Source of the DNA: Candidatus Undinarchaeota archaeon
GTDB lineage: Archaea; SpSt-1190; JASMDC01
Direction: 5' to 3'
Length of the DNA: 64,000 nucleotides
NCBI GenBank assembly: GCA_964519305.1
Contig: CAZFHY010000011.1
Location: forward strand, 1-64,000
Below are positions 1-36,607 of the stretch, piece after piece; position 1 is the stretch's first letter, and every line of letters starts with the position of its first letter. The notes beneath the pieces are model-generated. The model searched no databases, was not told where the DNA came from, and saw only the letters and a program-made list of their open reading frames with translations. The position numbers and the translations under genes were made by a program.

Positions 1-1466
1 TGCCGACTGTCCTGTTGCCACCCGACATGGATGTCGCCACCGAAGAGGTTGCTATCACCGAACGCAACATCAGCGAAGTTCTCGCACGCGATGGTGCACA
101 CCGCGCCCCCCAGGCAGTTCATAAGTAGGCATCGCCCGACCGCCTCGCCCCAGCTCTCGTCGCCCTGGGGTTTGGCCAGCAGGCAATATGCGCAGTTCTG
201 ACAGATGAAGGCACCGCGGTCCTCGCAGTTATCAGGATTGATCTCCACCCCCATGAACGATACGTTGTCCTTCATGTTCTTGCACATGAAGTTATTGACG
301 ATGAGAGGGCATACCTTGTACTGGAGAATGCATGTGATGGTGCAGTTGAGAATCTGCTCGCCGTCCCAGATGAACTTCTTCTGTTTCACGTCGTAGTAGA
401 ACCCCTCGTTGATGCACTCGCCGCACTTGTAACAGATATCGAGGCATGACGCTTGGTCGATGTCCACGGGCTGGTCGGACACCTTCTGGATGAGGGCGTC
501 ACCTCCGGTGCAGATGCCCGCGCACATGGGGCCAATGATGAGCGCGCGAACACCACAGGCCATGAAGCAGTTAATACGTTCCTGCTTACCATCCACTGTG
601 ATGCATTCGCAGCATTGGTCCACAAGGGCATTGCACTCGTACTCCACCTGCACCTGCAGCGCTTTCTTCTGCGGGATGAATGAGAAGATACCCTCCATCA
701 TGTTCTCGCACACTTCCCCAAGGAGGGGGGCCGCGAGCGACTTGCACATGCACTTGCTGATGAGGCACTTGTTGAAGGCCTCTCTCCGTTCCTTCGAGGT
801 CTTGGCGCTGCCCGTGCCCGGTATCAGCGTCAAGAGGCACTGACCACAGTTCTTGCATACATTGAAGAGGAGCTCATTGTTGCTCCTACAGGGCGCCTCG
901 CACCCCATGATGTCCTCACAGATCTCGGAGAGGATCAGGTCACCTATACAATGCTCGATCCAGCAATTGCTCTCCTTCGAGTCACCGCCAGAGCCCGAGT
1001 CAGTGATAAAGCAATCCAGGCACCCGCAGCCGATCTCGACGCACTCGTCCGTGCGTACACGGGGGATCCACGAGGAGATGGCGTACTGGCATGGGGGCTT
1101 GAGTATGATGTCGCATAGGGGTTTACCAAGGCACCGGATGAGGCAGGATTTGATCTTATCCTCGGGTTCCAAGGCGCACTTCACGCACTCGATGCGTGTG
1201 CAGAGCTTGGTGCAGAAGTTATCACCACCGCACAGTTCCTTGCACAGGGGATTGATGATGGCGAGCAGCTGACGTATGACGCATTCCTGAAGGCATTCAT
1301 CGCGGGCGGACGAGTCACTTATGCGGATGCACTCACCGCACTCGTAGCACATGTCGAGCATCTCGTCGCCCTTGATCGTGAAGTACTTGCCCGAGGATGC
1401 CGTCGTGGGAAGGAGGAAGAGCAGGAACAGTAAGAGCGCTACCGTCCTTCCTCGTAGAGCCTCCAA
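1..1466 (-). CDS. Secreted Cys-rich helical-repeat protein (partial; runs off the left edge, missing from the ORF track)
   Basis: Translated by hand from TTG at 1466 (RBS GAGGGG upstream): MEALRGRTVALLLFLLFLLPTTASSGKYF..., a signal peptide. The frame is open to position 1 and carries about 7 repeats of CxxCxxC...CxxxC...CxxxC. Confidence 0.85.
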   Translation of the reverse strand, partial: MEALRGRTVALLLFLLFLLPTTASSGKYFTIKGDEMLDMCYECGECIRISDSSARDECLQECVIRQLLAIINPLCKELCGGDNFCTKLCTRIECVKCALEPEDKIKSCLIRCLGKPLCDIILKPPCQYAISSWIPRVRTDECVEIGCGCLDCFITDSGSGGDSKESNCWIEHCIGDLILSEICEDIMGCEAPCRSNNELLFNVCKNCGQCLLTLIPGTGSAKTSKERREAFNKCLISKCMCKSLAAPLLGEVCENMMEGIFSFIPQKKALQVQVEYECNALVDQCCECITVDGKQERINCFMACGVRALIIGPMCAGICTGGDALIQKVSDQPVDIDQASCLDICYKCGECINEGFYYDVKQKKFIWDGEQILNCTITCILQYKVCPLIVNNFMCKNMKDNVSFMGVEINPDNCEDRGAFICQNCAYCLLAKPQGDESWGEAVGRCLLMNCLGGAVCTIACENFADVAFGDSNLFGGDIHVGWQQDSR

Positions 1467-3513: not shown

Positions 3514-3642
3514 ATGATAACCGTGGAGTCATACGCCCATATCGACTTCCTCAAGGACTTTGATAGTTATTTTGTTACCGAAGGGATCGATCTCAACGAG
3601 GACCTCAACGACCAGTGGGCGGGCTGGATGATCTACTTCTAA
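3514..3642 (+). CDS. Putative 42-aa small acidic protein
   Basis: MITVESYAHIDFLKDFDSYFVTEGIDLNEDLNDQWAGWMIYF*. TTAAAAA lies at 3493-3499 upstream and the codons look coding-like. Confidence 0.4.
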   Translation: MITVESYAHIDFLKDFDSYFVTEGIDLNEDLNDQWAGWMIYF

Positions 3643-3705
3643 AGGGCTGGAAAAGAGCTTCCTTGCACGTATTCATCCTCAGTAAATGGGCGCAGGCCAA
3701 CAAAC

Positions 3706-3713
3706 TATATAAG
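3706..3713 (+). promoter_or_regulatory. TATA box for the pilin-like array
   Basis: TATATAAG preceded by an A-rich BRE-like stretch, about 30 nt before ATG 3743. Confidence 0.55.
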
Positions 3714-3742
3714 GAGCCATGGGCACATCAATCTACAGGGAC

Positions 3743-3958
3743 ATGACGAATCCATTGTCACGTCTGATGCGGGCGAACCGCGGGGAGGAGGAGCAATCCC
3801 TCCTGTTGGTTATCATCGTGGCAGTGATGGTGTTCGCCGTGCTCTGGCTCGCAATCGGAAAGGCGGGACGATCGGTCGCTTTGGTGTTCGCAGGGTTCTT
3901 CAAGATGATCTGGAGCACCATCAAGGGAATGACCGGGATGGATTACCTGTTCAGGTGA
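3743..3958 (+). CDS. Minimal pilin-like protein (class III signal peptide)
   Basis: Basic leader ending NRG, then EEEQS and a hydrophobic helix LLLVIIVAVMVFAVLWL; short amphipathic tail. Confidence 0.65.
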   Translation: MTNPLSRLMRANRGEEEQSLLLVIIVAVMVFAVLWLAIGKAGRSVALVFAGFFKMIWSTIKGMTGMDYLFR

Positions 3959-4158
3959 AGGGCATGGGACGGCTCACCGATCTTGTTCGCAGTCGGCGCG
4001 GCGCTATGGGCGAAGCCATCGAGATTAACTTCTGGACCATCGTCGCTGTTCTCGTTGTGGCCGTTATCGTGTTCACACTCTACAATTTTGCTAGACAGGC
4101 CCAGCCATCCTTCGTTCAATGGTTAGCGGACATCATGGACATGTCCATGGGTGAATGA
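3955..4158 (+). CDS. Minimal pilin-like protein
   Basis: RSRRG/AMGEAIEINFWTIVAVLVVAVIVF; GTGA overlap with the previous gene. Confidence 0.7.
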   Translation: MKGMGRLTDLVRSRRGAMGEAIEINFWTIVAVLVVAVIVFTLYNFARQAQPSFVQWLADIMDMSMGE

Positions 4159-4414
4159 CATGGGCCTGCTCACGAACCGAAGGGGCATCAAGGCCAACGT
4201 GTACGACTTCATGATCTTCGTCATCATCTTCCTGCTGGTGCTAATGCTTGTGTTCACCCTTGCTGGATGGCGGATGGTCGAGATAATTCATAAACCTGCT
4301 CAGCGGATAGGTGACGATACGGCCGGCAAGGCACGGGACAATATGGCCTGGAACGGAGTTAAGAAGTCCACGGGGTTCATCAAGCTCCCAATGGGCGGCC
4401 TCCCCTTCGCGTGA
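4151..4414 (+). CDS. Minimal pilin-like protein
   Basis: NRRG/IKANVYDFMIFVIIFLLVLMLVF. Confidence 0.7.
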   Translation: MNDMGLLTNRRGIKANVYDFMIFVIIFLLVLMLVFTLAGWRMVEIIHKPAQRIGDDTAGKARDNMAWNGVKKSTGFIKLPMGGLPFA

Positions 4415-4458
4415 AATGTCGTGGTAGGTACACCCAATTACCACTACCCAATGACAAC

Positions 4459-4468
4459 TTATATAAAA
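4459..4468 (+). promoter_or_regulatory. Internal TATA box within the pilin array
   Basis: TTATATAAAA in an AT-rich 89-nt gap, followed by RBS GAGGGAG before ATG 4504. Confidence 0.6.
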
Positions 4469-4503
4469 CCTTACGTACATAGTATGTAATAGAGGGAGCA
4501 CTC

Positions 4504-4716
4504 ATGCTACGCACCCTAATCAGGTCGAAACGCGGTGAGCTGGGCGGACCCACCCGCATCAGTCTCAAGAAGATTCTTCCCGCGATCATCATGATGGTGC
4601 TCTTTCTGCTAGTGGGCTTCGCCCTGCTCCGTTCACGCGGTTATCTGGACTTCGAGACCCTTACGGGCACGTTCACCAAGACCGTGGAATCGGGGATGGA
4701 TATAGGAGGGATGTAG
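4504..4716 (+). CDS. Minimal pilin-like protein (candidate major subunit)
   Basis: RSKRG/ELGG...ILPAIIMMVLFLLVGFALL; has its own TATA box and RBS. Confidence 0.7.
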   Translation: MLRTLIRSKRGELGGPTRISLKKILPAIIMMVLFLLVGFALLRSRGYLDFETLTGTFTKTVESGMDIGGM

Positions 4717-4719
4717 CAC

Positions 4720-4911
4720 TTGTACTTACGCTACCTGCACCCATTAAAGAACCTGCGCCGCCTGGGACGCGACCAGCGCGGAATAACCATGTCACGAGAC
4801 ATGCTCATCGGGACCGTGATCGCTCTGCTAATGCTGGCGTTCCTACTCATGGTCATCGGTGACCGGATCGTGCCCATGGCGAACTCAGCGCTCTCTTGGG
4901 GACCAAAATGA
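4720..4911 (+). CDS. Minimal pilin-like protein
   Basis: DQRG/ITMSRDMLIGTVIALLMLAFLLMVI; TTG start after RBS GGAGGG. Confidence 0.7.
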   Translation: MYLRYLHPLKNLRRLGRDQRGITMSRDMLIGTVIALLMLAFLLMVIGDRIVPMANSALSWGPK

Positions 4912-5342
4912 AAGCACATCGCGGGGTCGTGGGTATATTCTACCTCGTCCTCGCGGCAGTGATAACGCTGGCAGTCTCGATCCTCATCATGCAGGCCATG
5001 TATAACCGAGCCGCTAACGCAGGAAAGAAACCGACCGATCAGGGCCTTCAGGGCAGGATCGTCGCTCTCTGCACCCAGCTGACCGGCCCGGACACCTTCG
5101 ATGCCACGGAGACCGTTGAGCTCCCCTCCAAGGTGGACGGCCGAGAGGTCGCTCGCCTCGTGATGATGTACTGCTTCCCGGGAGTATCTCCCGGCGATAT
5201 TACGGTAGAGAATGACTGTTCGCGCGAAGCTCCCGGACACGTTCTCCACTGGTGCGGATCTACCGAGCTGCTGGGTACAAAACGCTTTTCAGCAGAGATG
5301 TCCCGCGATACCGAGTTCGATGTCCGATTGAGGGTGAGCTGA
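4908..5342 (+). CDS. Pilin-like protein with Cys-containing globular domain
   Basis: MKAHRG/VVGIFYLVLAAVITLAV; ATGA overlap with the previous stop; 4 Cys. Confidence 0.7.
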   Translation: MKAHRGVVGIFYLVLAAVITLAVSILIMQAMYNRAANAGKKPTDQGLQGRIVALCTQLTGPDTFDATETVELPSKVDGREVARLVMMYCFPGVSPGDITVENDCSREAPGHVLHWCGSTELLGTKRFSAEMSRDTEFDVRLRVS

Positions 5343-5936
5343 ATGATTGCCGTCGACTCGTTCCGCAAGGTCGTGGGATTCGTCGTCATTCTAGGTCTCA
5401 TCGTTGCTATCATATATGGCGTTGCTTACGAACGGATATCGCGCGTGGGGAACAAGTTCGTAGACATGTTCGCATGCCCGCCGCTTGCGACCTGCGGTAC
5501 TGGCCCGAAGAACCAGTGCCCTCTCTTAGCTAGTCTCGATATGCCGATTCTCACTAAAGGCGATTCGCTCATGGCAGGCAAGTGCCGCCTCCGCATATGT
5601 AACCGGAAGTCCATTGGGGGAGAGCCCAACCGCGACTATAGGGTGGAGGTCTGCCGGAGCGCTGTGGCCAATCCCGGAAAGAAGGAGGTTGCCGAACAGG
5701 AGTGCGTCCTCCTCACTGATCCCCGGGGTAAGGTGAAGCAGTTCAACCTCGCGAAGGAAGGCGTGACCGAGTACGAGTGCGCTAACGTCTGGCGCCCTGC
5801 GGATCTCGATCTCACACGCTCGGAGCGCGAGGTATCGATAGACCTTATAATCAACATCAAGAACAGCACTGGGCTGTTCAAGGTGGTGGACACTGAATGG
5901 AACGTACGCTACCAGCATCCGCTCGACGAAGCATAG
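5343..5936 (+). CDS. N-anchored Cys-rich protein of the pilin array
   Basis: N-terminal TM VVGFVVILGLIVAIIYGV, 8 Cys; no clear basic-Gly leader. Confidence 0.7.
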   Translation: MIAVDSFRKVVGFVVILGLIVAIIYGVAYERISRVGNKFVDMFACPPLATCGTGPKNQCPLLASLDMPILTKGDSLMAGKCRLRICNRKSIGGEPNRDYRVEVCRSAVANPGKKEVAEQECVLLTDPRGKVKQFNLAKEGVTEYECANVWRPADLDLTRSEREVSIDLIINIKNSTGLFKVVDTEWNVRYQHPLDEA

Positions 5937-6127
5937 GCCGACTGACCCGCGGTAAACGTGGCGGGATAGCAGACCAGCCAATCTATGCTTTAGCAACGCT
6001 TATATTGATGGCCGTGTTAATCTACGTCGCGTACACATGGTTATCAAGCAAACCAGAAATGATCACAAATGTCTTCGGAAGGACCCTGGACATGCTTACT
6101 GGGGCCTTTGAGGGGTTTTTAGGATGA
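5897..6127 (+). CDS. Minimal pilin-like protein
   Basis: GKRG/GIADQPIYALATLILMAVLIYVAY plus an amphipathic tail. Confidence 0.65.
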   Translation: MERTLPASARRSIGRLTRGKRGGIADQPIYALATLILMAVLIYVAYTWLSSKPEMITNVFGRTLDMLTGAFEGFLG

Positions 6128-6585
6128 ATACGAAAGGATCTATTGACACGTCGGTCGCAGCCCTTATAGCCATCGTACTTGGTGTAGGCGTTATTGCCTT
6201 CGGTGTCTATGGGCTCAACAAAGGCCAACGGACCTCGGACAACGTTGGCGTCATGGGAGATGCGGCACGAAGTCGCCTCGATCCACGGACGCTAGGTAAG
6301 TGTGCTGACTGGCACGATGATGGATACCCTCTTGGTATCGACGTCCTTCAGTACACCTATGGCTTCCCCACTATGTTTACTGGGCAGAGCATTGCTGGGT
6401 GCAAGAACCTACCGGACAAGATGGCAGACGCCAAGGAAGACGGCGTCCCGAGCTTGAAGTTCAGTGACAGCGATGTGAAGCGATGCGCTACCTACTGTGC
6501 GAAGATCGCACAGGAAAGGGACAAATGCATGTCCCAACGCGATCCGCAGTCCTGTATGGCCGAAGCATTTGCAAAGGTAAGATAA
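6124..6585 (+). CDS. Pilin-like protein, CxxW / C-x3-C-x9-C family
   Basis: MNTKG/SIDTSVAALIAIVLGV; CADW; CATYC-x9-C. Confidence 0.75.
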   Translation: MNTKGSIDTSVAALIAIVLGVGVIAFGVYGLNKGQRTSDNVGVMGDAARSRLDPRTLGKCADWHDDGYPLGIDVLQYTYGFPTMFTGQSIAGCKNLPDKMADAKEDGVPSLKFSDSDVKRCATYCAKIAQERDKCMSQRDPQSCMAEAFAKVR

Positions 6586-6604
6586 CCTTACACGGGGAAC
6601 TACC

Positions 6605-7138
6605 ATGAGGAGACGGGGTACGTTGAGTCAGTGGTTGGGTGGGCGCGCCCACATGAGCGTGGGAACTCGTCGCGCCACTATCAATCTGAGCCTTGGTGTT
6701 CTTGTGGCCATCGTGTTCGTAGTGCTCCTCGTCGCAATGGGTGCCCTTTCTGCAAGTCGTACCAAGAAGGACGTGCAGAACAGGTCCAAGGAGTTCAAGA
6801 CCCAGATACGCTCTCAACTCCTTTCAGCCAATCCCATTGCAAAGGCATGCTCATTATGGTTCACACAGGGACTTGGTATGCCAACGGCAGTCAACTACTA
6901 TAAGGTCCCAAGCTCGTCCAAATATGCCACGTGGGGTTGCTGTGACGATCTGGACGGGCTCGAACACGACAAGCTCAACGCCCAGCGTGTGAACAAATGC
7001 CTCAAGTCGTGCGGTCAGGCACTCTCCCTATTGGAGCGTTGTAGCCATGACTGGGACATCATGGACGGAGGCAAGTACGAGGATGCCCAGGCCTGTTACA
7101 AGTCACGGTTCGATAATGACGTGAGGTGCGCCTCATGA
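6605..7138 (+). CDS. Pilin-like protein, CxxW / C-x3-C-x9-C family
   Basis: RRA/TINLSLGVLVAIVFVV; CSLW; CLKSC-x9-C. The start may be ATG 6653. Confidence 0.75.
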   Translation: MRRRGTLSQWLGGRAHMSVGTRRATINLSLGVLVAIVFVVLLVAMGALSASRTKKDVQNRSKEFKTQIRSQLLSANPIAKACSLWFTQGLGMPTAVNYYKVPSSSKYATWGCCDDLDGLEHDKLNAQRVNKCLKSCGQALSLLERCSHDWDIMDGGKYEDAQACYKSRFDNDVRCAS

Positions 7139-7548
7139 GCCGGACCCGCGCCCAAATGAGCTTCATGCCACTAGTCGTGGTCATCCTCGGGATCTTCTTC
7201 CTCACAATCGGGCTCATCCTCATATACAACGCACGCGAGATCCAGAAGTCCGAAAAAGATATCGTCCTGTTCAAGAGCGTTTCATCGATACACAACATCT
7301 GTCGGTTCTGGAAGAATCCGGGACTTTACGTAGATGTCGCCATGCCTATACAGCTTGGCGAGGCCTTCGAGTCTGCGGGGCTTAACGCGGTCTATCCCTG
7401 CTCAAACACTAACGCAGACGGCATCAGGAACTGCATGTTGAAATGCGAGGCGCTGGAGCGGCTCGTGATGGTATGCAACATCCATGGCAACGATAGGAAC
7501 GTCGAAGAATGCAGCTCCACGAACATAAGGAGCCTGCTGATGAAATGA
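7135..7548 (+). CDS. Pilin-like protein, CxxW / C-x3-C-x9-C family
   Basis: MSRTRA/QMSFMPLVVVILGIFFL; CRFW; CMLKC-x9-C; ATGA overlap. Confidence 0.75.
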   Translation: MSRTRAQMSFMPLVVVILGIFFLTIGLILIYNAREIQKSEKDIVLFKSVSSIHNICRFWKNPGLYVDVAMPIQLGEAFESAGLNAVYPCSNTNADGIRNCMLKCEALERLVMVCNIHGNDRNVEECSSTNIRSLLMK

Positions 7549-7557
7549 GGGAATGCC

Positions 7558-8115
7558 ATGACTAGCGAAGGGCTGATGCGGGCATTGGTTGTGTTCATAC
7601 TGGGACTGGTGGTGCTCGCCGCCGGCGTCCAGATGCTTGGTAGGGCCAAGAAGGTCACCATGAAGAGCGCAGTCATCCCCAGTGATTACCAGGAGCTGAA
7701 ACGCATGAAGGTCCTGGTCGATAACTGCGGGGAGACCGGGTGGGGTGCGGACCTTATCCGTGGCAAGCTCCTCTCAGGGAAGGTCGAGTGCGACACGACC
7801 TGCAAGGCCAACTTTGCAGAACACTACCGTGACATACCCCGGGCCGTGGAAGGTCTCTTCCTTGTGAAGAGCCGCTTCTGCTCCTCCTCTGGCTGCCCGG
7901 CCACGCGCCGGTGTGCCGAGGCGGTGAAATTGGCCAGCATCGGCAGTACATCGACTTATAAAGATAAGTTGAAAGGATACGCTGAAGCGTGTGCCCAGGT
8001 CTGTGCATGGAGCATGCAGAGGCACGAGGTGTGCGCCTCGCAAATGGCTGAGGTGTACACTAAGGGCAGCGGCTTCAGTTCTCCCTGTGCGGACAGGGAG
8101 GGCGAACTACCGTAG
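7558..8115 (+). CDS. Pilin-array protein, C-x3-C-x9-C family
   Basis: N-terminal TM ALVVFILGLVVLAAGV; CAQVC-x9-C; no basic-Gly leader. Confidence 0.7.
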   Translation: MTSEGLMRALVVFILGLVVLAAGVQMLGRAKKVTMKSAVIPSDYQELKRMKVLVDNCGETGWGADLIRGKLLSGKVECDTTCKANFAEHYRDIPRAVEGLFLVKSRFCSSSGCPATRRCAEAVKLASIGSTSTYKDKLKGYAEACAQVCAWSMQRHEVCASQMAEVYTKGSGFSSPCADREGELP

Positions 8116-8127
8116 AGGTGAGGGGAA

Positions 8128-8625
8128 ATGGTTCCATCAACGACATCGAACCGGGGCCAGGGGCAGCCTGTCTGGATCCTGGTGGCCGTTCTTCTGGCGG
8201 TCATCGTGGCAGTGACCATGTACAGGCTCGTCACACGGCTCGACGTGGATGAGCTGCCTGACGTGGACGTTGCGACGGCAACGACCCGATTTATGCAGCA
8301 GTGTCAACAGTGGGATGACATGGAGTGGAACCAGTACAGCAAGCCTAAAGCGGAGGAAGCCAAACATTCCATGGAGTTGTATGCCTGGCGTGCGAACCGC
8401 ATCCTCACGAAGGAAGAAGTGGAGGCGGGAAAGCAGGTCATGCCCTGCGACTGTATAGTCTACCTCCACATGCGAAACCTCGTCGACTACGGGGAGACCA
8501 TCCAGCTGTGGAAGCAGCACAAAGATTGCAATTCCTGGGCCAGGAACACCGGCTGCTCGAAGAACTTCTGCGGAACGGGCGAAGCAGCAGGAGAGTGCAA
8601 GAAGGCCCATGCGTGCCCCACGTAG
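8128..8625 (+). CDS. Pilin-like protein with CxxW motif
   Basis: SNRG/QGQPVWILVAVLLAVIVAV; CQQW; Cys-rich C-terminus; RBS GAGGTGA. Confidence 0.75.
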   Translation: MVPSTTSNRGQGQPVWILVAVLLAVIVAVTMYRLVTRLDVDELPDVDVATATTRFMQQCQQWDDMEWNQYSKPKAEEAKHSMELYAWRANRILTKEEVEAGKQVMPCDCIVYLHMRNLVDYGETIQLWKQHKDCNSWARNTGCSKNFCGTGEAAGECKKAHACPT

Positions 8626-9214
8626 TCCCTACCGACGCGCCACCATCGACGTTTTCGGGCTGGTCGCTCTCGCAATATTCGGTCTAATAGCGGCCGTTCT
8701 TCTCATCCGTTTCACTGGGCTCACCACGGGCGCATTGGGCGAGACCCATGCCGCCAAGAACATCAATGAGATCGTCGTAGGGGCACGAAAGGCCTGTAGG
8801 GACGGTGAGGCCGTCGTGAGCGCCTTCACAGTTCCCGAGCAGTACGCGTACGTGGTACGCACCTGCGACCTGTGGGAGTGCGCCGACGGCAACTGCCGGG
8901 ACGAGACCATTGCTGGTCATAACTGGCCCCTGGACGCCGATAGCAAGCGCAAGGTGTTCGACAAGTTCTGCAACGGTCGTGATTCGCCGAACCTACTGGC
9001 CGCCTGCTACATCATCTATGGCGTCCACCACGACTGGGGCCCGTTAGGTCAGCTCATGGGATGGAAGCGCATAGTCGCACAGACACGCAAATGCGAGAAC
9101 ATCCACTGCGGTATACCTTATGACATCAACCTCATCATGCCCGGAAAGCAGAAGTACCGCATGAACATAGTCAGGGACGGCGAAGCTCTGGTCGGGAGGA
9201 AGTACGATGTCTAA
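8609..9214 (+). CDS. Pilin-like protein (alpha/beta Cys scaffold)
   Basis: RRA/TIDVFGLVALAIFGLIAAVLLI; helix ending RKAC, followed by beta-type segments with paired Cys. Confidence 0.75.
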   Translation: MRAPRSPYRRATIDVFGLVALAIFGLIAAVLLIRFTGLTTGALGETHAAKNINEIVVGARKACRDGEAVVSAFTVPEQYAYVVRTCDLWECADGNCRDETIAGHNWPLDADSKRKVFDKFCNGRDSPNLLAACYIIYGVHHDWGPLGQLMGWKRIVAQTRKCENIHCGIPYDINLIMPGKQKYRMNIVRDGEALVGRKYDV

Positions 9215-10502
9215 GCTCCTAGGCCGCAAGCGAGCCCTCCTGGGCATCAAGTTCTGGTTCATGGTATTTGTGGTCATGGCGTTCATGGTCGCTGTGAGCA
9301 TGGCCATGAACATCCTCTATGTAGGTCAGACCGTGCGGGCCGCGGACGAGCTCGGCCGGATCAAGACGTACATGGAGGCCGTTTGCCACGGGAACGTAGG
9401 CGACTACCGTTCCTTCGGCGCCCCACCGTTCGGTGTGATCGTCCGGGTTGACTCTTGTGATAAGGTGCTCGCAAAGAGCGCGGTCCGAGGCGCGGTGGGT
9501 GTTGGCGTGATGACAAAACACATAACATCAATCGCCAACATGGGAAAGAAGCCCAAGGCGCTCAAGCAGATGGCCGACAAGGCAGACGACCTCGCGAAGA
9601 TGTCGGGCTCAAATGTGAAGACCGCCACTGATGCCGCCCGGATAACCGAGGCCAACCAGGCGCTTACCAAGAACCTGGCCATGTTCAAGGATCCGAGCAA
9701 GAGCCTCTTCCAGATTCCTGTCCCCTCGAAGATGGCAGGGGTCCACAACAAGGTAGTGATGGCCTTGGACAAGACCGGTATCGTCTCGGCCAACGGTGCC
9801 AAGGCCCAGAAACACATCGTAGAGATCTACAAGATACAGGGCCAGCTGGGCCGTACCAAGGACGCAGCCCAAGCGGCCAAGCTGTATGCTCAATGGGGCA
9901 ACCATGCCGACGAGGCCTACAAGCTCGCACACACGGCCGGCAGGTTCGGCACGGGGATGAAGTTCACCCAGGGAGCCCTGTACACGAGCTGTGTGGGCAC
10001 GTCCCTTGCGGGCTATGTCAAGGAAGTGGATGTCGTACCTGAAGGGGCACAGAAGGCCATTGAGGACGTCCATACGGCCACACGCGACCTAATCGCTGAT
10101 AATGTGGGGCCCGCGGGCGGGACTGTGAGCGCCCTCCCCGCCGAAGGTGTACCCTGCCTTGCCTACTCGCTCTCGAAGGGTGCAAGCCTGAAGGGCGCCA
10201 CCGGCTTCCTTGGTGGCGCTGTCACGAGCACGGCCTTCAACATCCTTGGTGGTCGGATGCTCGGTCAGTCGGCCGCCATGATCTCAAGCTTTGCCACCCG
10301 GTGCCCGGGAGCAACCAACGGCCTGGCCATCTGTATCCAGAAGTCCAAGTGTGAGAGCGAGGAGAAAGGCCCGTGCTCCGCTTGCGATGTGATATCATGT
10401 CGTGTTCCGATCAACGTGGAGTCCCGCCCCTTCGATCCGAAGATAACGGTCTCCCATGAGGGTGACGTCGTGAAGCTCAACGGGGGTGTAGAGCCATTCT
10501 GA
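9207..10502 (+). CDS. Pilin-like protein with large inserted Gly/Ala/Lys-rich domain
   Basis: RKRA/LLGIKFWFMVFVVMAFMVAV; both termini align with the 8609-9214 scaffold. Confidence 0.75.
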   Translation: MSKLLGRKRALLGIKFWFMVFVVMAFMVAVSMAMNILYVGQTVRAADELGRIKTYMEAVCHGNVGDYRSFGAPPFGVIVRVDSCDKVLAKSAVRGAVGVGVMTKHITSIANMGKKPKALKQMADKADDLAKMSGSNVKTATDAARITEANQALTKNLAMFKDPSKSLFQIPVPSKMAGVHNKVVMALDKTGIVSANGAKAQKHIVEIYKIQGQLGRTKDAAQAAKLYAQWGNHADEAYKLAHTAGRFGTGMKFTQGALYTSCVGTSLAGYVKEVDVVPEGAQKAIEDVHTATRDLIADNVGPAGGTVSALPAEGVPCLAYSLSKGASLKGATGFLGGAVTSTAFNILGGRMLGQSAAMISSFATRCPGATNGLAICIQKSKCESEEKGPCSACDVISCRVPINVESRPFDPKITVSHEGDVVKLNGGVEPF

Positions 10503-10504
10503 GG

Positions 10505-10987
10505 TTGCTCGCGGCCAAGCGCGGCCAGGCATCAACCGTGTCCGAATCCCTGTCGGAGTTCGCCAAGTTCGTGGCCGCCATCATAGTATTCGCCCTCGTA
10601 CTCGGGGCGTTCCTCGCTCTGCTCGTGAATATGCATAAGCTGTCACTCATCATGAACGCCCGCATCGTGGCCGATGCCATAGCTGGCGCTATCGCAGCGG
10701 TGTCCACAGCACCTGACCAGGCTTCGTTCTGCTATACGGTCCCATCGTTCGCTACATACCGCGTCGTCATCGGTGGCGGAGCCGTGCTGGTAGTGCAAGC
10801 AGGGGAACAGGCTTTCGGTATATCTCCTTATCCCGTCCCTGGCGTGGAGCCTACGGAGCTACTCGTTGGCAAGGACCAGGTGAGCGCTGTGATCGTTATT
10901 CGCAAGATACGCGTGGGCGCCTCCGAGCAGATATCGGTAACGGCCCCGGAGGAGTTCGAACTAAAGCGTTGTGCGGAGGTAATCTAG
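10505..10987 (+). CDS. Pilin-like protein
   Basis: AKRG/QASTVSE, close to the canonical archaeal [KR]GQ class III motif, followed by a long hydrophobic helix. Confidence 0.75.
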   Translation: MLAAKRGQASTVSESLSEFAKFVAAIIVFALVLGAFLALLVNMHKLSLIMNARIVADAIAGAIAAVSTAPDQASFCYTVPSFATYRVVIGGGAVLVVQAGEQAFGISPYPVPGVEPTELLVGKDQVSAVIVIRKIRVGASEQISVTAPEEFELKRCAEVI

Positions 10988-10988
10988 G

Positions 10989-12623
10989 ATGCTCGAGGAA
11001 CAGGTGTTCATTATCGTGATGGTCATTCTCCTGGTGACCATCGTAGGTGGCGGTGTATCCGCCTGGTTCAAGTTCACCGAGTCCATCGAGAGCGACATAG
11101 AGTTCAGGGCCGCCGTCAAGGTGGCGCACAGGCTCGCGGGCTCATCACAATGCCTTACCTACCTGTCCGCGACACAACGCGCAAGCAAGAACGTGCTCGA
11201 CGCTAACAAGCTCAAGCTCGCCAACGAAATCTATGGCAGCGACCGTTCCAAGGGCCTTCTTTCCCTAGGGGGTATCCTGGGACTCGGGAGCGCAGACGGG
11301 AACCTTCCCCGGGAACACCCGTGCGCCTTCCTCATGGGATTCAGATGGCAGGCCCACATAGTCGACCTTGAGTTCTTCTCCGATATGGAAGATGAGAAGC
11401 GAGAGGAGCTCTCTGAACGGTACGGCTGTCTACTAGCCAAGGATTCGTGCTTGTGGGATATGGGGAAACCCTTCAGCTTCTCCCCGCGCCTTGAGCATCT
11501 CGAGGCGAAGGACGCCGAGGAACGGAGCGATGACCACTTCTGCAGCGGCCAGGACTGGTGCGCGAGCATGAAGAACAGCTTGGACAAATGCCTCAGTAAA
11601 GGGGACGAGGACCTCAAAGGGCTATCCAATCCAACGGCCCCCGTGAAGATCCCTATCACCATCGCCATCACCAACGAGATCGGCCAGCTCGAGAAGCATA
11701 TGGGCTATCTCCAGGTAGTGGTCATACCCAGCGACCGCCACTGTACTCGCGAGGATTACGGTGAGCGCGCTTTCTACATGGGGGAGAACAAGGCGATAAT
11801 CGGTAAGGAATGCTGTCTCTTTGACCTCCAGGAAGGAGTGTGTCGCGGGAACCTGCGTGCAGCGCACGCGGTCCAGGCCAAGTTCGCCCGCACGGTGTAC
11901 ATTTTCTCAGGGGTCGGGACGCTCGCTAATCTCATCACCGGCCACTGCCCGGAGTACGAGTATCTCGCGAAGGATGACTACATCGCGTGCGGGTGTGAGA
12001 ACAAAGGGCAGCCGATGGAGGTAATCGGCCTCGACGGCCCCCAAGTCGTCGGAACTGGTTGCCCTAGGAACAACTTCTTCGCCGCAAAGGTTCAGAACCG
12101 CAACTGGGAGAAGCCCGCAACCGTGAAGGCCATCAAGCTCACAGCCGGCGGTAACGACTATCTACCCTGTACGAAGGAAACATGTGGTCTTCCAACGGGA
12201 ACAATCTGGGTGAAACCCTCTGAGGAGGTGGATCCCCGCTCAGTGGCCACCTACATGTTCGGTGTGCCGGCCGAGGATCTTTCCGGCGACGAGGCCGAGG
12301 TCACCATCACCATGGAGTATTCTGTCCCTAAGATATCCTCACCCTACAAGAAGCCTAAGGACTGCCGGGAGTCGGGGCACCTGTACGTGTGCACCCACAC
12401 CCTAAAAACGACCTATCCCGCCACCGGGTGTGTCGGGGAGGGATTGAAGGACGCGTGCATGGGCCAGATATGCAGCAAGGACCAAGTGTGTTGTTCTGCG
12501 GGCGGATGCATCTCCAAGGAGCGCAAGACCCATTGCGAGGCAGCGGTCACCGGTTGGGACAGCCTGAAGAAGGAAGGCGAGGCCCTCATGAAGGGCAGTC
12601 TGGAGGACGAGAAGGATGCATAG
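10989..12623 (+). CDS. Large Cys-rich N-anchored protein of the pilin array (minor pilin/adhesin-like)
   Basis: MLEEQVFIIVMVILLVTIV TM; RLAGSSQCLTY...VLDANKL; many Cys; RBS GGAGGT. Confidence 0.75.
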   Translation: MLEEQVFIIVMVILLVTIVGGGVSAWFKFTESIESDIEFRAAVKVAHRLAGSSQCLTYLSATQRASKNVLDANKLKLANEIYGSDRSKGLLSLGGILGLGSADGNLPREHPCAFLMGFRWQAHIVDLEFFSDMEDEKREELSERYGCLLAKDSCLWDMGKPFSFSPRLEHLEAKDAEERSDDHFCSGQDWCASMKNSLDKCLSKGDEDLKGLSNPTAPVKIPITIAITNEIGQLEKHMGYLQVVVIPSDRHCTREDYGERAFYMGENKAIIGKECCLFDLQEGVCRGNLRAAHAVQAKFARTVYIFSGVGTLANLITGHCPEYEYLAKDDYIACGCENKGQPMEVIGLDGPQVVGTGCPRNNFFAAKVQNRNWEKPATVKAIKLTAGGNDYLPCTKETCGLPTGTIWVKPSEEVDPRSVATYMFGVPAEDLSGDEAEVTITMEYSVPKISSPYKKPKDCRESGHLYVCTHTLKTTYPATGCVGEGLKDACMGQICSKDQVCCSAGGCISKERKTHCEAAVTGWDSLKKEGEALMKGSLEDEKDA

Positions 12624-13215
12624 GGAGTCCATCCGACGTTTCCTGGCCCGGGCACGCCGGTCCCGCCGCGGTATGGGGATGGGGACCGCCTTCACTGCCG
12701 GTCTAACCATCATGACCGTTGGGCTCGCCCTCATAGTCGCGACCTCCCGTATCAAGGTCAACGTCATGCTCGCAGAGGAGCAGGCATGGGACCCAACCTA
12801 CCAGCTCCTCCTCTCTCTGGCCGAGTCCACCGTTGTGATACGTGAGGGCGACCATCGTGCAGTGCTGAGCATGTTCGACATCCTATCCATGGTGGGTGCG
12901 ACACAACAGTCCAAGGTAGTCGTTCGTGTGAAGGGAAAGAGCGTTACCGTTGACGTGAACGAACTGCTGGAGAAGAAGCTCAAACGTCCTTTCGAGCTCA
13001 TCGGCCGGAACCAGGTCCATATCGTGCTCACGGACAACGATCAGAAGAAGGTCATTGTCGAGTACCCTCGACGTAACACCGTGGACTATCGTGCCTGGCT
13101 CGAGAAGGAGAACTTCGAGATTGGCCGCGTGACCTCCGCCCGTATGCTAGTCCCGCTCCCTGACGGTACATCTACAGCCACCCTCCTCCTACAATATGCG
13201 GAGGTGTATTCATGA
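12616..13215 (+). CDS. Pilin-like protein
   Basis: RSRRG/MGMGTAFTAGLTIMTVGLALIV. Confidence 0.7.
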   Translation: MHRESIRRFLARARRSRRGMGMGTAFTAGLTIMTVGLALIVATSRIKVNVMLAEEQAWDPTYQLLLSLAESTVVIREGDHRAVLSMFDILSMVGATQQSKVVVRVKGKSVTVDVNELLEKKLKRPFELIGRNQVHIVLTDNDQKKVIVEYPRRNTVDYRAWLEKENFEIGRVTSARMLVPLPDGTSTATLLLQYAEVYS

Positions 13216-14501
13216 TGCGGCGCCGTCTCAATATCGGCCGTTCCCGCTCAACAGTCGGTTGGTTCCTATGGCTCGCCCACGCGACCCGCGGTGTTGCCCC
13301 GGCAGTGCTCATGCTAGGGGCATCGGTCGCGCTCACCATCGGGATGTCCATGTACGTAACCGCCAAGCTCCAGGGTGATGCGGTCGTGAAGTCCATCACA
13401 CAGGAGGCGAAGATACTCAAGCGGATTCATATCAACGAGGCTGCGCGGCTCTACGCACGCCAGTCCATCAGGACCGTGGTGAACCAGGCCGTGGCAGATG
13501 TTCTGCGTTACGGGGGTTTCACGGACCCCGCCTTTACCACTCTTGGGACCGCGACCGTAAGCCAGAACAAGGTCGTGCTGTTCGAGAAATGCGAGCAACA
13601 AGGTGGGGGCGATGTGACGTGGAAGAAAGCGTGCGAGCAGGAGCTCGATCCGTTCTTGGAGAGCGATGTCACGGTCATTACAGAGCGCGCTCGCGAGAGC
13701 ATAGGGCAGCTTGTGCCCGAACGTGTCGGTGCCGCTGTAGCTGCGCACAACCGAGAGGATCAGGACTCCATGATCCGTCTCACATCACCGGACATCCATA
13801 TGGACTTCAACGATGATGCTGTGTCTGTCATCGTCCCGCTCAACATCACTACTTACCTGGCAAACAAGCTGGGAGTTGTCTCATCGCCCGACTATATTTC
13901 CGAGACGGTACAGGTGCGCATGATGAAGCTCTTCGAGGTCGGGCTGGATGTGTCAAGATTGGACCTTCATGAACGTACCCAGGAGGCACTGTGCGGCGTA
14001 TGCGACCGCTACCCGGATCGGCGCCCGATGGCAAAGGACCTGCGCACCATCACGGACGAGGCCCTCGACAAGATCGAGGAAGAGTATGCTGAGGAGTATG
14101 CGGATGACGGTATCGCGATCACAATCACTCTTATCGATGGGACTCTGTTCCATATATTACCCAAAAAACCGTTCGATCAGGCTGAAGAGGACGGTGTGAA
14201 GGTAGTAGACTGGAAGGAGCCGGAAGCAGATGACGCACCCGTCCCCTGGCAACTATACATGAACGGCGAGGTGGCCGAGGATCCTGCGAGCGGGAAGAAG
14301 AGCGGCCGATACGCCCTTGGGGCCGATCTTGCCATCCATGTACGTGCGGAGGACCAGCGCACCTACCTACCTTACTTAGTACAGCGTGGTACGAAGATGG
14401 ATTACGAGTACCGGCCAATCGCTGTGGAGTTCGTACTCAAGAAGCGTGTGTGGGAGGGCGACGATTCGAAGTGCTCCCTCACTGCCGAGTGCGAGGGATA
14501 G
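13212..14501 (+). CDS. Large pilin-like protein, last gene of the array
   Basis: ATRG/VAPAVLMLGASVALTIGMSMYV; ATGA overlap. Confidence 0.7.
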   Translation: MMRRRLNIGRSRSTVGWFLWLAHATRGVAPAVLMLGASVALTIGMSMYVTAKLQGDAVVKSITQEAKILKRIHINEAARLYARQSIRTVVNQAVADVLRYGGFTDPAFTTLGTATVSQNKVVLFEKCEQQGGGDVTWKKACEQELDPFLESDVTVITERARESIGQLVPERVGAAVAAHNREDQDSMIRLTSPDIHMDFNDDAVSVIVPLNITTYLANKLGVVSSPDYISETVQVRMMKLFEVGLDVSRLDLHERTQEALCGVCDRYPDRRPMAKDLRTITDEALDKIEEEYAEEYADDGIAITITLIDGTLFHILPKKPFDQAEEDGVKVVDWKEPEADDAPVPWQLYMNGEVAEDPASGKKSGRYALGADLAIHVRAEDQRTYLPYLVQRGTKMDYEYRPIAVEFVLKKRVWEGDDSKCSLTAECEG

Positions 14502-18594: not shown

Positions 18595-21500
18595 GTGATT
18601 ACTTTGTATAGATTGAAGAGGACCATTGCCGGATTGTTGATTGTGCTACTCCTTTTGGGCGTAGCGGAAGGAGAAGTACCGTGTGAAATACCGCGACCGG
18701 ACATATGTACGCAGGAGTACGCTCCAGTATGTGGCTCAGATGGAGAAACATATGGGAACGGGTGTACTGCGTGTAGCAACGCCGCCGTGGAGCATTACAC
18801 TGACGGAGAATGCGAGGCGCAGGTTGAGGAGAATCCCGAAGGGGACGAACCAGCGGACGAAGGAGAGTCCGATGAAGGCGCGTCCACCCCTCCAGCCGAG
18901 CCGGTCCATCCCGAATGCCCTCTGAACATGGAAGAGGTCTGTTTATGTGAGCAATGTTTCTGCACAACGCCCCGGTGCGTTGTGGACGCTGACTGCTCTA
19001 CAAAGGTCACGTGTGCCTCGAACGAAGTGGACATCTGTCAGGACGAGATCTGTACCTGTATCAGCACTGACGACGTGGACCTGGTGGACGTCAACGACAC
19101 TGCGGACTGGGGGGACGACGAGATCCCGCTCCCGCTAGGGGTTGAGTGCCGTGTCCAGAGCCTCGAGAGCGAGAACATAAAGGACTACTACGATAAGACC
19201 TCACGCCAACTCTGCTCAATCTCTGAAGCATTCTCAACATTCGTTGGCACCGAACCCGACGAGATGAGAGCAAAGGCGGACTATGGTTTCTCTGCAACGC
19301 GTCCAGAATGGTCGGGCGTGCTCACCGAAACCGAGGATTCCCTGGGACGCGCGATCTCAGAGACCGCGAGCGCGGAACAGCGACTCGCTCAACACATGAT
19401 CAAATTCATCAACACCGTAAAGGTAATGATCAATCTCTGTAGCACTGCTGACTACGTTTGCGGCCACGAGTGTAGCCTGTGCGGCGGCGCTGCAAGTGGA
19501 CAGTCACCCTGCTCCTGCGAGGATGAATCGTGCTGTAACTCCCTTGTTACTGAAGACCTTTGCGGTATCGCCCCCACCTGTTCATGGATGCCCAGTGATG
19601 CTGGCGAGTGTGAGGGTAAGCCCGACGGGGAAAAATGCTCTAACGGCGATGGTATCTGCTGTGTCGGTAGACGCGGTGCTGACGACACAGAATACCCCAT
19701 GTGCATCATCGGCGGGATGGAGTGCGGCGAGTTCGGTGAAGGGGCCGGTGGCGAAGATGGAGGTGACGCCGGTGGAGATGAGACCACGTGGACCATCCCC
19801 GATGGCAGCGAACGATTCGAGGACGGCGAATTCCTCTGGAAGCCCATCTCCGAGAGCGATGGCAACCTCGTCATCCTCCTGCCCTCAAGCTACTCAAGCG
19901 ACTGCTCTGTCACCGCAGGCGGGACCCAGGGCGACTATCGCAGCAGGGCCAACGGCGACCGGCCTCACTACAGGTACGGACAACCCGGAAGTGCGTTCGG
20001 TAATAACGTGGAGGTCGTGGCCAACTGTCCAGATGGGGAGGGGGGGCCCTCGGATAACAACGTGGGCGGCGGCGATTGTGCCGACCAGACCGATGGGGCC
20101 AGATGCGGCACTGCGGGAAGATGCTGCGGCAAACGATGCGTCGAGGGTGCGTTCTCATGCGACTCGGGGACATGCTCGCTCAGATGTGCTGGCTTCAGTC
20201 CCGAAGAGTGCCAGATGTTCGACTGTTCAGGCAACAACAGGACCACTTGCGGCGAGACCAATGAGACAAAGGGAATCTGCATGTGGAAATCCTATGATAA
20301 CGTCCCCGGGGACGACGATAACGATAATGATGGTATCAACCGCTGCTACGACAACATGACCTGTGATGCTGATGGGGACAGCATACCTGACCGGGTCGAC
20401 GAGGACATAGACGGTGACGGTATCCCCAATGAGGAAGATCTGGATATCGACGGCGACGGCGTCCCGAACGAGGAGGACCGGCTCCCTGGTGATGATAATG
20501 ACATCACATCGAAGAAGCTGTACGGTATCAAGTACCGCCTCCAACGCTGGGACGAAGATGATGGCTGGTCCAATATCGATGAAGAGGTGGAATGTGTCAA
20601 TGAATGTACCCACGAGTGCATCTGGCAGAACACCTGCCGGGATGGCCCCGATCTTGTCCAGTGCATCTTCGGTAACCAGGACGATGGACAGCAAGGCGAT
20701 TGTGATTGCCAAGGCCGACCGCAGAACAACCAGGTAGAGCAGATCTCCACCGAGGTGACCCCCGGCGAGGGTGAACTGGACTTCGACGGCGACGGAGTGC
20801 GCATCTGTACCGATAACGAGACGTGCGATTCTGACGGCGACGGCATCCTCGACTATGAGGATCAGGACGATGATAACGACGGCACGGTGGACGTGCTGGA
20901 CGAGGACGACGACGGGGACGGCAACCTCGACACGGAGGACCTGCTCTTCGGCGACGATGATGACTTCACGTTCACGACCTACAAGGTGGACGACGACCTC
21001 GACTGTATCCTCAATTGTGGGCCGGACTTCCGACAGTGCGACTCGGACGGCGATGGTACGAACATCCCCCAGGACCCTGACGATGACAATGATGGGACCT
21101 CGGACGAAGACGGCGATCTGGACCAGGACGGGGATTCTCAGGGTAATGGGTGTGTGAACATCTGCAACCTCAACAGCACGCAGGACCTCTGCCTGCCGGC
21201 TTGCCCCAAGGACTGGGAGAGCGGTGCGGACCAGTGCGGACAGTGGTCGGGATCGTGCATGGGTACGATCAACCGCTACTATGAGAACCTATACCTTATC
21301 GAGCACCTTGGGATCCTTGTGAACAACGAGATCAACAACATTGTCACCTATTCCCGGGAGAACAACACTTTGGTGGAGATGGCGACACAAGATAACGAGA
21401 TCAACGTCACTGACATAAGTGAGCTCGATCTCAACTTGGACACCCCGGTCCTTGCGGCCATCATGGACAAGCTTGCGGACAAGGTCGTGGACCAGGCCGT

Positions 21501-30012: not shown

Positions 30013-30597
30013 ATGGAGCTCACCGAGGCGCTGGCCACCCGACGGAGCGTGCGAAAGCTCGACCCGGAGCCCGTTCCACGGGAGATCATCGAGGAGCTTG
30101 TGAGCTTAGCTACCATGGCCCCAAACGCCCATAACTCCCAGCCATGGCAGTTCGTGGTTGTGGATAAGATGCGCGAGTCTCTTGTGGACGCTCTGGCATC
30201 GGGCCTAAGGAGCGACCTACTAGGTGAAGGGGAGAGTCCTGATGAAGCTCAGCAGATCGCGGAGGCCAAGACTGGCCGGTTCCGACACCCGCCAGCGCTC
30301 CTGCTCGTTTGCCTGGACGCACAGCGGATCAAGGCCGGGCCGCGTCAGGATGCAGAACGGCTCCTAGCAGTGCATAGCGTCGCTGCCGCAATCCAGAACC
30401 TGCTGCTGGCCGCCCATGATCGGGGTCTGGCCACCTGCTGGTACTGTGCACCCGCATTCTGCCCTGAGACAGTGCGAAAGGCACTGGACCTATCGCCAGA
30501 CGTTGAACCCCAGGCACTGGTGGCGCTCGGCAGGCCGGCAGAGGATCCCACATCACCCCGCCGCCGCCCGCTTGCGGAGGTTCTGGTGTGGCGATGA
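30013..30597 (+). CDS. Nitroreductase-family protein, FbiB C-terminal domain/FbiE-like
   Basis: RRSVR, APNAHNSQPWQF, SVAAAIQNLLLAAH..GL.TCWYCAPAFCPETVR.AL; ATGA-coupled to cofD. Confidence 0.8.
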   Translation: MELTEALATRRSVRKLDPEPVPREIIEELVSLATMAPNAHNSQPWQFVVVDKMRESLVDALASGLRSDLLGEGESPDEAQQIAEAKTGRFRHPPALLLVCLDAQRIKAGPRQDAERLLAVHSVAAAIQNLLLAAHDRGLATCWYCAPAFCPETVRKALDLSPDVEPQALVALGRPAEDPTSPRRRPLAEVLVWR

Positions 30598-34174: not shown

Positions 34175-34230
34175 CGAGTGATGGGTGAGGGTAAAAGCAT
34201 TTATTGATGGCACCGCCAAATGACATCAGG

Positions 34231-36594: not shown

Positions 36595-36607
36595 AACCCA
36601 TTTATAT
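36595..36607 (+). promoter_or_regulatory. BRE/TATA promoter
   Basis: AACCCATTTATAT upstream of RBS GAGGG and ATG 36650. Confidence 0.6.

Follow-up and report, generated by a model that had tools for sequence, protein, structure and literature searches.

A 19-gene array of pilin-like proteins in an Undinarchaeota archaeon with a large genome, and its putative motor

DPANN archaea presumably depend on attachment to other cells for their way of life, and the mode of attachment is largely obscure. The stretch of DNA analysed here (the window) is the initial 64 kb of contig C11 of an Undinarchaeota genome; near its start it carries 19 consecutive genes (g01–g19, the array) for proteins that resemble type IV pilins. 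The question raised by this locus is what the array encodes and which machinery, if any, it serves. Our analysis makes it likely that the array is a real subunit set of a type IV filament-like (T4F) machine of DPANN archaea, expanded and moved away from its motor.

The genome of the window (G000, in which contigs C2, C5, C11 and C18 are named below) is archaeal, its small-subunit rRNA scoring 1508 bits with the archaeal model; the assembly comprises 3.63 Mb in 42 contigs and is estimated to be 99.8% complete. We compared it with its sister species (G001) and with further genomes of the phylum (G002–G007, G011, G012 and G015). Seventeen species genomes represent the phylum in our collection, and 11 were examined for the arrangement discussed below. 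L-numbered loci are those of relatives and of other DPANN archaea, gathered around orthologues of the ATPase or of array genes.

The array and its counterparts behind an ATPase–platform pair

The list of open reading frames (ORFs) places g01–g19 on the plus strand at 3719–14501, and a Kyte-Doolittle scan finds a single N-terminal hydrophobic segment in each of the 19 proteins, as a preliminary description of the window had stated. The array start given there, 3743, corresponds to a second ATG within the g01 frame, and the ORF itself opens at 3719. The genes are indeed mostly coupled: 10 of the 18 junctions overlap and 17 are at most 20 nt long, the sole larger gap being 89 nt (g03/g04). The described rise in protein size along the array is also seen, in three classes: six proteins of 63–87 amino acids (aa) with one helix and a tail of 25–35 residues (g01–g05 and g08), eight Cys-containing proteins of 140–201 aa (g06, g07, g09–g14) and five proteins of 160–544 aa (g15–g19). 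The number of Cys residues is even in all 13 array proteins that contain any, which fits with exported, disulfide-bonded domains. A weak BLASTP likeness connects g04 with g02 (E 1e-4).

The array genes are real and under purifying selection. G001 carries all 19 ORFs intact and collinear, with 87–97% amino acid identity, and the ratio of non-synonymous to synonymous substitution rates (dN/dS) between the two genomes is 0.02–0.31 per gene and 0.08 when pooled.

The evidence on the machinery comes from relatives. The g19 protein weakly matched protein N-termini in five of them, and the corresponding loci are arrays of single-helix proteins. Searches with hidden Markov models (HMMs) assign orthologues of g09, g11, g13 and g15–g19, that is, of eight of the 19 families, to relatives' arrays. 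In G002 the array starts four bases inside the end of a gene for a 708-aa membrane protein, and this gene in turn overlaps that of a 760-aa ATPase with a T2SSE domain (PF00437, E 9e-11). The order in G002 is thus ATPase, 708-aa partner and an array that includes g09-, g11-, g17-, g18-, g19- and g15-like genes, with overlapping junctions. The arrangements in the 11 genomes are as follows.

ATPase, partner and array adjacent: G002, G003, G007, G011, G012 and G015 (6 of 11 genomes)
Pair and array meeting at two contig ends: G004
Array and pair on separate contigs: G000, G001, G005 and G006

The synteny check called for by the preliminary description therefore finds orthologous arrays directly behind the ATPase–partner pair in six of 11 genomes. 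Gene order is retained as well: that of G004 (g09..g13, g15, g16, g17, g18, g19) is the order of the window, and the relatives' arrays have about 7–12 genes versus 19 here. Judged by these neighbourhoods, the array is not an orphan, as eight of its families adjoin an orthologous ATPase–platform pair in relatives.

The claim that ATPase, platform and peptidase are missing from the window can be extended to the whole contig: PF00437, PF00482 and PF01478 have no match on C11, and in G001 neither PF00437 nor PF01478 matches the 154-kb contig of the array. A search of the genome, also suggested in the preliminary description, finds an ATPase–partner pair and A24 prepilin peptidases, with the following features on C2.

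C2:506-919: small divergent gene 5' of the ATPase gene, next to a second one cut by the contig start; both products are helical, repetitive and coiled-coil-like by eye
C2:1045-3348: ATPase of 767 aa, 56% identical to the G002 ATPase (the other G000 ATPases are 25–28% identical)
C2:3353-5533: platform partner of 726 aa, 36% identical to the G002 partner
C2:158750-160015: A24 prepilin peptidase with the motif GGGD

The C2 ATPase has the motifs GTRGSGKS (Walker A), LILGEVR and TIH, and the solved structures nearest to its profile are Archaeoglobus fulgidus GspE (2e-31), CpaF (3e-24) and FlaI (9e-17). Orthologues were found in all 17 genomes of the phylum at no less than 50% identity, one cut copy excepted, and records that bear labels such as Woesearchaeota and Nanoarchaeota contain them at 46–51% identity (581 loci confirmed, of which 80 were kept). 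This presence throughout the phylum, together with about 50% identity in other DPANN-labelled records, makes the ATPase a prime candidate for the motor of cell attachment.

The partner has nine hydrophobic segments and appears to be a highly divergent T2SSF protein. One of its homologues matches T2SSF at 31.2 bits (cut-off 25.2), T2SSF is listed at E 0.036–0.27 for three of four others, and one homologue bears the Joint Genome Institute name TadB; profile–profile comparison with the T2SSF proteins of G000 itself gives probabilities of 25% (for a T2SSF-like stretch) and 4%. A single partner of 643–740 aa follows the ATPase in the loci inspected. Prepilin peptidases of family A24 occur in all 17 genomes; G000 has four PF01478 matches above the cut-off, of which that at C2:158750-160015 has GGGD and the others GGAD or SAGD.

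By analogy with T4F systems, the N-terminal helix would insert each array protein in the membrane, and most leaders would be trimmed after G or A by an A24 peptidase, the best candidate being C2:158750-160015. The ATPase at C2:1045-3348 would then lift the subunits from the membrane and stack them on the platform C2:3353-5533. Under this scheme g01–g05 and g08 are candidate headless fibre subunits, like Flp or Epd pilins, and the eight Cys-containing proteins of 140–201 aa together with g15–g19 would serve as minor subunits or at the tip, their outer domains being held together by disulfide bonds. The products of the array would thus form a filament, and attachment or cell contact is our leading guess for its role. 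We infer from synteny that the C2 motor, and not one of the five other T2SSE ATPases of G000, serves the array. Since G000 and its relatives have multiple T2SSE ATPases, this assignment comes solely from gene order in relatives. A supplementary argument, that the smallest genomes hold just this ATPase, was dropped, the 0.6-Mb relatives having two to five T2SSE matches.

Leaders, predicted structures and alternative explanations

The array genes are listed below with their leaders (the slash follows the G or A of the motif) and with dN/dS between G000 and G001.

g01, 3719..3958, plus strand: minimal protein of 79 aa; leader RANRG/EEEQS; alternative start at 3743; dN/dS 0.16
g02, 3955..4158, plus strand: minimal protein of 67 aa; leader RSRRG/AMGEAIE; 4-nt overlap with g01; dN/dS 0.07
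g03, 4151..4414, plus strand: minimal protein of 87 aa; leader TNRRG/IKA; dN/dS 0.14
g04, 4504..4716, plus strand: minimal protein of 70 aa; leader RSKRG/ELGG, polar spacer of 11 residues to the helix; dN/dS 0.09
g05, 4720..4911, plus strand: minimal protein of 63 aa; leader RDQRG/ITM; dN/dS 0.20
g06, 4896..5342, plus strand: 148 aa, 4 Cys; leader KAHRG/VVG, helix immediately after; dN/dS 0.16
g07, 5343..5936, plus strand: 197 aa, 8 Cys; N-terminal helix without [KR][GA]; dN/dS 0.07
g08, 5897..6127, plus strand: minimal protein of 76 aa; leader RGKRG/GIA; dN/dS 0.31, the maximum of the array
g09, 6124..6585, plus strand: 153 aa, 6 Cys; leader TKG/SID; "C-x-x-W" family of nine members, which include g10 and array genes of G002, G004, G007, G011 and G015
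g10, 6605..7138, plus strand: 177 aa, 8 Cys; leader TRRA/TIN; paralogue of g09; dN/dS 0.12
g11, 7126..7548, plus strand: 140 aa, 6 Cys; leader RTRA/QMS; orthologue in the G002 array; dN/dS 0.10
g12, 7558..8115, plus strand: 185 aa, 10 Cys; MRA/LVV by eye, outside the script's rule; dN/dS 0.09
g13, 8128..8625, plus strand: 165 aa, 8 Cys; leader SNRG/QGQPVW; orthologues in the G004, G011 and G015 arrays
g14, 8609..9214, plus strand: 201 aa, 8 Cys; leader YRRA/TID; dN/dS 0.06
g15, 9207..10502, plus strand: 431 aa, 10 Cys; leader RKRA/LLG; dN/dS 0.04; orthologues of 551–753 aa in the arrays of G002, G003 and G004
g16, 10505..10987, plus strand: 160 aa; leader AKRG/QAS, spacer of 11 residues; dN/dS 0.02; orthologues in G003–G006
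g17, 10989..12623, plus strand: 544 aa, 26 Cys; no leader (MLEEQ, then helix), unlike its orthologues in G002–G006, which have [KR][GA] leaders; dN/dS 0.04
g18, 12616..13215, plus strand: 199 aa, no Cys; leader RSRRG/MGM; orthologues in G002, G003 and G005; dN/dS 0.07
g19, 13212..14501, plus strand: 429 aa, 6 Cys; leader HATRG/VAP; last gene of the array; dN/dS 0.08; N-terminal module kept in G002–G007 and G011

The basic leader had been described for sixteen of these proteins, and the same 16 of 19 were recovered by a script that demands [KR][GA] no more than 14 residues before the hydrophobic run; g12 was added by eye (17 of 19). Among 300 other ORFs of G000 with a single N-terminal helix the rule is met by 117 (39%; binomial P 7e-5). 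The motif is therefore enriched in the array yet not specific, and by itself it is weak evidence. It is retained across orthologues at 13–23% identity, and in relatives' arrays (nine genomes) it occurs in 41 of 67 single-helix ORFs, and 16 start with M[KR][GA]; among ORFs longer than 90 aa the count is 38 of 56.

The most informative single protein is g19. A word-indexed search of 5.8 billion proteins returned one match, 93% identical, and a profile of its N-terminal module matched 34 of 1.84 billion cluster representatives, in every case at the representative's own N-terminus; by eye, a hydrophobic stretch comes after an initial M[KR]G in most of these 34. The AlphaFold (AF2) model of g19, built from 36 sequences, has a mean predicted local distance difference test score (pLDDT) of 69 and a predicted template modelling score of 0.62. 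It predicts a continuous helix of 72 residues (28–99) that starts at the +1 position of the RG site, with block pLDDT of 83–94 across residues 31–100, and alpha/beta domains after it. The structural check, which covered g19 and g09, was thus answered in part: the long, confidently predicted N-terminal helix at +1 is there for g19, a significant Foldseek match to a pilin is not, and no usable model was obtained for g09.

Several observations weigh against the array being a pilin set driven by the C2 motor. As to the leaders, the rule's background of 39% has been given above, g07 and g17 are without the motif, and six array proteins have a polar spacer of 5–11 residues between motif and helix; in the textbook class III signal the helix follows the motif directly, with no polar spacer. 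In relatives' array ORFs of up to 90 aa the motif occurs in just three of 11, so the small proteins may not all undergo processing. As to family models, none of the 19 proteins scores above any cut-off of Pfam or NCBIfam, and neither Class_IIIsignal (PF04021) nor Pilin_N (PF07790) matches anything in 3719–14501 when the whole genome is searched at E up to 10. Profile–profile comparison of the g09, g17 and g19 families shows no relation beyond the helix (probability below 10%). As to structure, Foldseek finds no match of the g19 model in the PDB at E ≤0.001, the best Z of a wide VIA-align search is 7.6, which is noise level according to the tool's note, and the g09 model is an unusable, all-helical one of low confidence (mean pLDDT 54.9). 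Among the VIA matches listed for g19 residues 235–413 are PilX (Z 7.0), PilA5 (6.3), XcpV/W (5.6) and PilJ (5.4); such pilin or pseudopilin matches make up four of the 50 rows listed, tied with unrelated folds, and we do not count them as support. As to the motor, six T2SSE matches in G000 exceed the Pfam cut-off (the C2 ATPase and five more), and the array lies on another contig. Finally, in 38 DPANN loci with at least 8 kb 3' of the ATPase orthologue, a multi-helix partner is adjacent in 29, and only eight have four or more single-helix ORFs on the same strand.

Other searches were negative as well. Archaellin PF01917 has a single match in G000, on C5, outside the array, and the archaellin among the VIA matches listed aligns with the g19 helix alone. 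In the PDB, no credible match emerged for profiles of the g09 family, of the N-terminal module of g19 or of the platform partner; in a language-model atlas g19 retrieves only unnamed Nanobdellota/Woesearchaeota clusters (0.93–0.94), and g17 nothing usable. HMMs of nine array families, run against the 80 DPANN loci, match only L070–L072, which are Undinarchaeota-labelled, and weakly L083; on this evidence the array families appear to be detectable within the Undinarchaeota-labelled phylum only. In the DPANN loci L111, L134 and L141, the ATPase and partner do have several single-helix proteins with a [KR]G leader in a row behind them.

How far can these observations be explained otherwise? The alternative that survives best, and a rather unlikely one, keeps the same proteins and the same machine, which would take up DNA or export proteins through the envelope by means of a short pseudopilus or piston, with the Cys-rich subunits as its tip or as a periplasm-like scaffold. 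A head domain is present in 14 of the 19 proteins, which so resemble minor subunits, and the pseudopili of type II secretion and of competence are systems with several head-bearing minor subunits. The description of Undinarchaeota proposes, in the text available to us, pilus-mediated DNA import (PMC7414124), and SLT domains on g16-like proteins of three relatives and Peptidase_M23 on g19-like proteins of two would suit surface-displayed enzymes rather than parts of a fibre. However, no secretin-like, ComEC-like or DNA-binding partner was seen beside the arrays, although none was searched for, and the six headless proteins of 63–87 aa resemble fibre subunits of the Flp or Epd type in form.

It is quite improbable, in our view, that the array encodes ordinary single-pass surface or envelope proteins, inserted by Sec, left uncleaved and merely travelling with the ATPase–platform pair. 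The absence of any matching pilin model would be expected then, as would basic residues before the helix, which any signal anchor should have and which let the background pass the motif rule so often; several array proteins of relatives open directly with the helix, and array and motor are unlinked in G000, G001, G005 and G006. Yet G or A after the basic residue stands far above that background and is kept in strongly diverged orthologues, the array overlaps the platform gene in G002, the A24 peptidase is found throughout the phylum, and the predicted helix of g19 begins exactly at +1. A foreign island (a provirus or mobile element) coding for virion or envelope proteins, which so many small, unannotated membrane proteins in succession, with the typical look of viral dark matter, might bring to mind, is highly implausible and was rejected: GC content is even across the window (0.54–0.63), no tRNA, integrase or repeat boundary lies near the array (the only RNA genes of the window are two tRNAs at 53.2 and 61.0 kb), a viral contig collection holds no g19 relative, and eight array families are vertically shared across the phylum beside a cellular ATPase–platform pair.

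The interpretation of the array as T4F subunits with machinery encoded elsewhere, which the preliminary description had put forward from the window alone, is thus backed by orthology and synteny in relatives, by the C2 pair, by the A24 peptidases and by the g19 helix.

Neighbouring genes, relatives' enzymes and the host genome

Several ORFs around the array, or connected with it, deserve mention.

3-1466, minus strand: ORF of 488 aa cut by the contig start; extremely Cys-rich, with an N-terminal signal-like helix and no family match
3514-3645, plus strand: 5' of g01, strongly conserved with G001, with differences mainly at third codon positions; reads as an acidic 43-aa ORF without a membrane helix, MITVESYAHIDF...WMIYF
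18595-27057, plus strand: ORF of 2820 aa with N-terminal Kazal-type inhibitor domains, a second Kazal stretch counted by scan, numerous Cys, long repeats rich in Asp (DxDxDG-like) and a membrane helix at the C-terminus; by its sequence likely a giant surface protein
36569-38815, plus strand; 43654-46425, minus strand; 61164-63824, minus strand: ORFs of 748, 923 and 886 aa, respectively, with no Pfam match at E ≤0.01
C2:5478-8333: protein of 951–954 aa directly 3' of the platform gene in G000 and G001, where relatives have the array; Sec-type signal-like start, no Pfam match
C18:66983-69265: membrane-anchored protein of 760 aa with two DsbA/thioredoxin domains

A TATA-like CTATATAA at 3704-3711 precedes the first ATG (3719) by 8 nt and the second (3743) by about 32 nt; its spacing would fit a leaderless start of g01 at 3743. 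Between 3300 and 15600, a scan for bacterial-type promoters, which is blind to archaeal ones, gave five versus 5.6 in shuffles, and one for bacterial-type terminators 10 versus 8.1.

N-x-S/T sequons are rare in the 19 array proteins: four were observed versus 11.6 ± 3.2 in residue shuffles, of which six of 500 had no more than four. The ectodomain of g13 aligns, with all eight Cys, with the C-terminal domain of the DsbA-domain protein at C18:66983-69265. The latter sits about 4–6 kb from another complete pilus locus (C18:57-63 kb), which comprises an ATPase, two T2SSF genes and two RG/Q pilin-like genes.

Three genes flank the array in five relatives: one of the SPFH/Band 7 type, a conserved one of 198–199 aa and one for a radical S-adenosylmethionine (SAM) protein (L035:15594-18313 and equivalents). 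The SPFH and radical SAM orthologues of G000 are on C11, about 64 kb 3' of g19 (C11:78394-80310), and this position suggests an ancestral neighbourhood stretched by insertions.

Some array proteins of relatives carry enzymatic domains. The g16 orthologues of G003, G005 and G006, but not g16 itself, contain an SLT lytic transglycosylase domain; the g16-like genes L037:8854-10011, L040:10641-11816 and L041:9074-10321 show it in three of three genomes of one small-genome family. Two g19-like genes (L037:13077-19940 and L041:1031-7129) encode proteins of 2000–2300 aa with Peptidase_M23, one of them with a weak GH39-like match in addition, and a further protein of the g19 family (P0011) has a C39-like peptidase. 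To judge from these matches, the SLT, M23 and C39-like domains on the pilin-like anchors are probably enzymes of bacterial cell-wall breakdown.

These domains also allow a bolder interpretation, improbable by our estimate: a contact machine universal among DPANN archaea may be present in unreduced form as the array and the C2 motor, about 19 ordered subunits building a fibre with a very large tip of several proteins, and in small-genome relatives the g16 and g19 positions of the tip would be equipped with murein-cutting enzymes (SLT, M23, C39-like). If so, the machine would breach bacterial and not archaeal partners, and its presence in a biosynthetically rich relative of 3.6 Mb would mean that it predates the symbiotic lifestyle.

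The host genome is itself unusual: G000 has 3.6 Mb and its sister G001 3.8 Mb, and the other 15 species genomes of the phylum have 0.6–1.2 Mb. Genome sizes of about 4 Mb are on record for members assigned to a lineage affiliated with DPANN (PMC10936187, in the text available to us). The genes of the window (including those at 30588-34219 and 59302-60219) comprise ones for CofD, a CofH/CofG-like radical SAM protein, a MoaA-like protein, a phosphoglucomutase and a carbamoyltransferase. A large genome with F420 and molybdenum cofactor genes beside the array suggests that the machine is not bound to a reduced, host-bound lifestyle.

Among the loci inspected the window thus offers the largest and best-ordered parts list for the phylum-wide motor (19 versus about 7–12 genes), and the comparison with relatives pinpoints the conserved subunits g09, g11, g13 and g15–g19. 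The array gives proteomics and tomography a defined set of targets, which could also be expressed together with the cognate peptidase.

Comparison with known systems

The preliminary description called the system uncharacterised. This stands for the families, on which we found no paper, nor did we find a solved DPANN pilus, though the supplementary tables of PMC11291902 and PMC13705601 may list the genes; the portions of two protein-family surveys available to us (PMC9258230 and PMC8204110) contain nothing on pili. It does not stand for the type of locus. Makarova, Wolf and Koonin (2019; PMC6393860) described dark-matter signal-peptide proteins beside a type IV pilus ATPase and TadC as "diverse pilins" in some DPANN genomes. 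Hamm et al. (2024; PMC11291902) reported two conserved type IV pilus-like loci with CpaF, TadC and coiled-coil proteins in cluster 2 DPANN and Undinarchaeota, and the accessible part of that paper names filament proteins for locus 1 only. The system of the window shares with these loci the orthologous ATPase (46–51% identity) and the adjacent multi-helix partner (29 of 38 loci), and the two coiled-coil-like genes 5' of the ATPase may be a further likeness, judged by eye only. It differs in that the subunit array has 19 genes and lies on another contig than the motor, and in that the array families were found only within the Undinarchaeota-labelled phylum, apart from the weak L083 match.

A survey of 2026 in PLoS Genetics (PMC13705601) describes, in the text available to us, DPANN ATPase and platform genes as adjacent, pilins as scattered and system identity as mostly ambiguous, and assigns pilins of the "system 1" type to 1990 DPANN genomes. 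Earlier, one nanoarchaeal ATPase clade had been reported to be without identifiable cognate pilins (Makarova et al. 2016; PMC4858521, as far as the text available to us goes). Survey tools may call DPANN pilins scattered or leave them unidentified because these proteins fall outside every curated pilin model and their genes often lie apart from those of the motor.

The Epd pili of Methanococcus maripaludis, a T4F "system 1" (PMC13705601, in the same text), combine minimal pilins that lack a head with numerous accessory pilins and an A24 peptidase of their own, and G000 has candidates for each of these. The array differs in having no match to any known pilin model, and there are two platform genes (EpdJ/K) there versus one protein of 650–730 aa with about nine helices here.

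The bacterial Tad/Flp pilus is similar in that the ATPase has CpaF among its closest relatives of solved structure (3e-24) and in the combination of very small fibre candidates with larger single-helix accessory proteins. In contrast, the Flp motif G/xxxxEY was not found by eye in the small proteins of the window (g02, for example, has RG/AMGEAIE); a motif like it was seen once, in the Woesearchaeota-labelled L141 (KG/ELSIEY). The accessory subunits number 13 in the array versus three in Tad (TadE/F/G), TadB and TadC are two platform genes whereas the array-linked loci have a single partner, and the system is archaeal, with no outer-membrane parts.

The tip complexes of minor pilins and pseudopilins in type IVa pili and type II secretion systems (PilX, XcpV/W) likewise have several head-bearing subunits in a fixed gene order. 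They have four to five members, however, versus thirteen in the array, and the structural matches of g19 to them are at noise level.

In summary, both the DPANN islands of diverse pilins and the conserved CpaF/TadC loci, those of Undinarchaeota among them, appear from the available text of PMC6393860 and PMC11291902 to be already known. What is new is the tie of an unlinked array to a motor found throughout the phylum, along with the conservation of gene order, the number of genes in the array and the large genome of its host.

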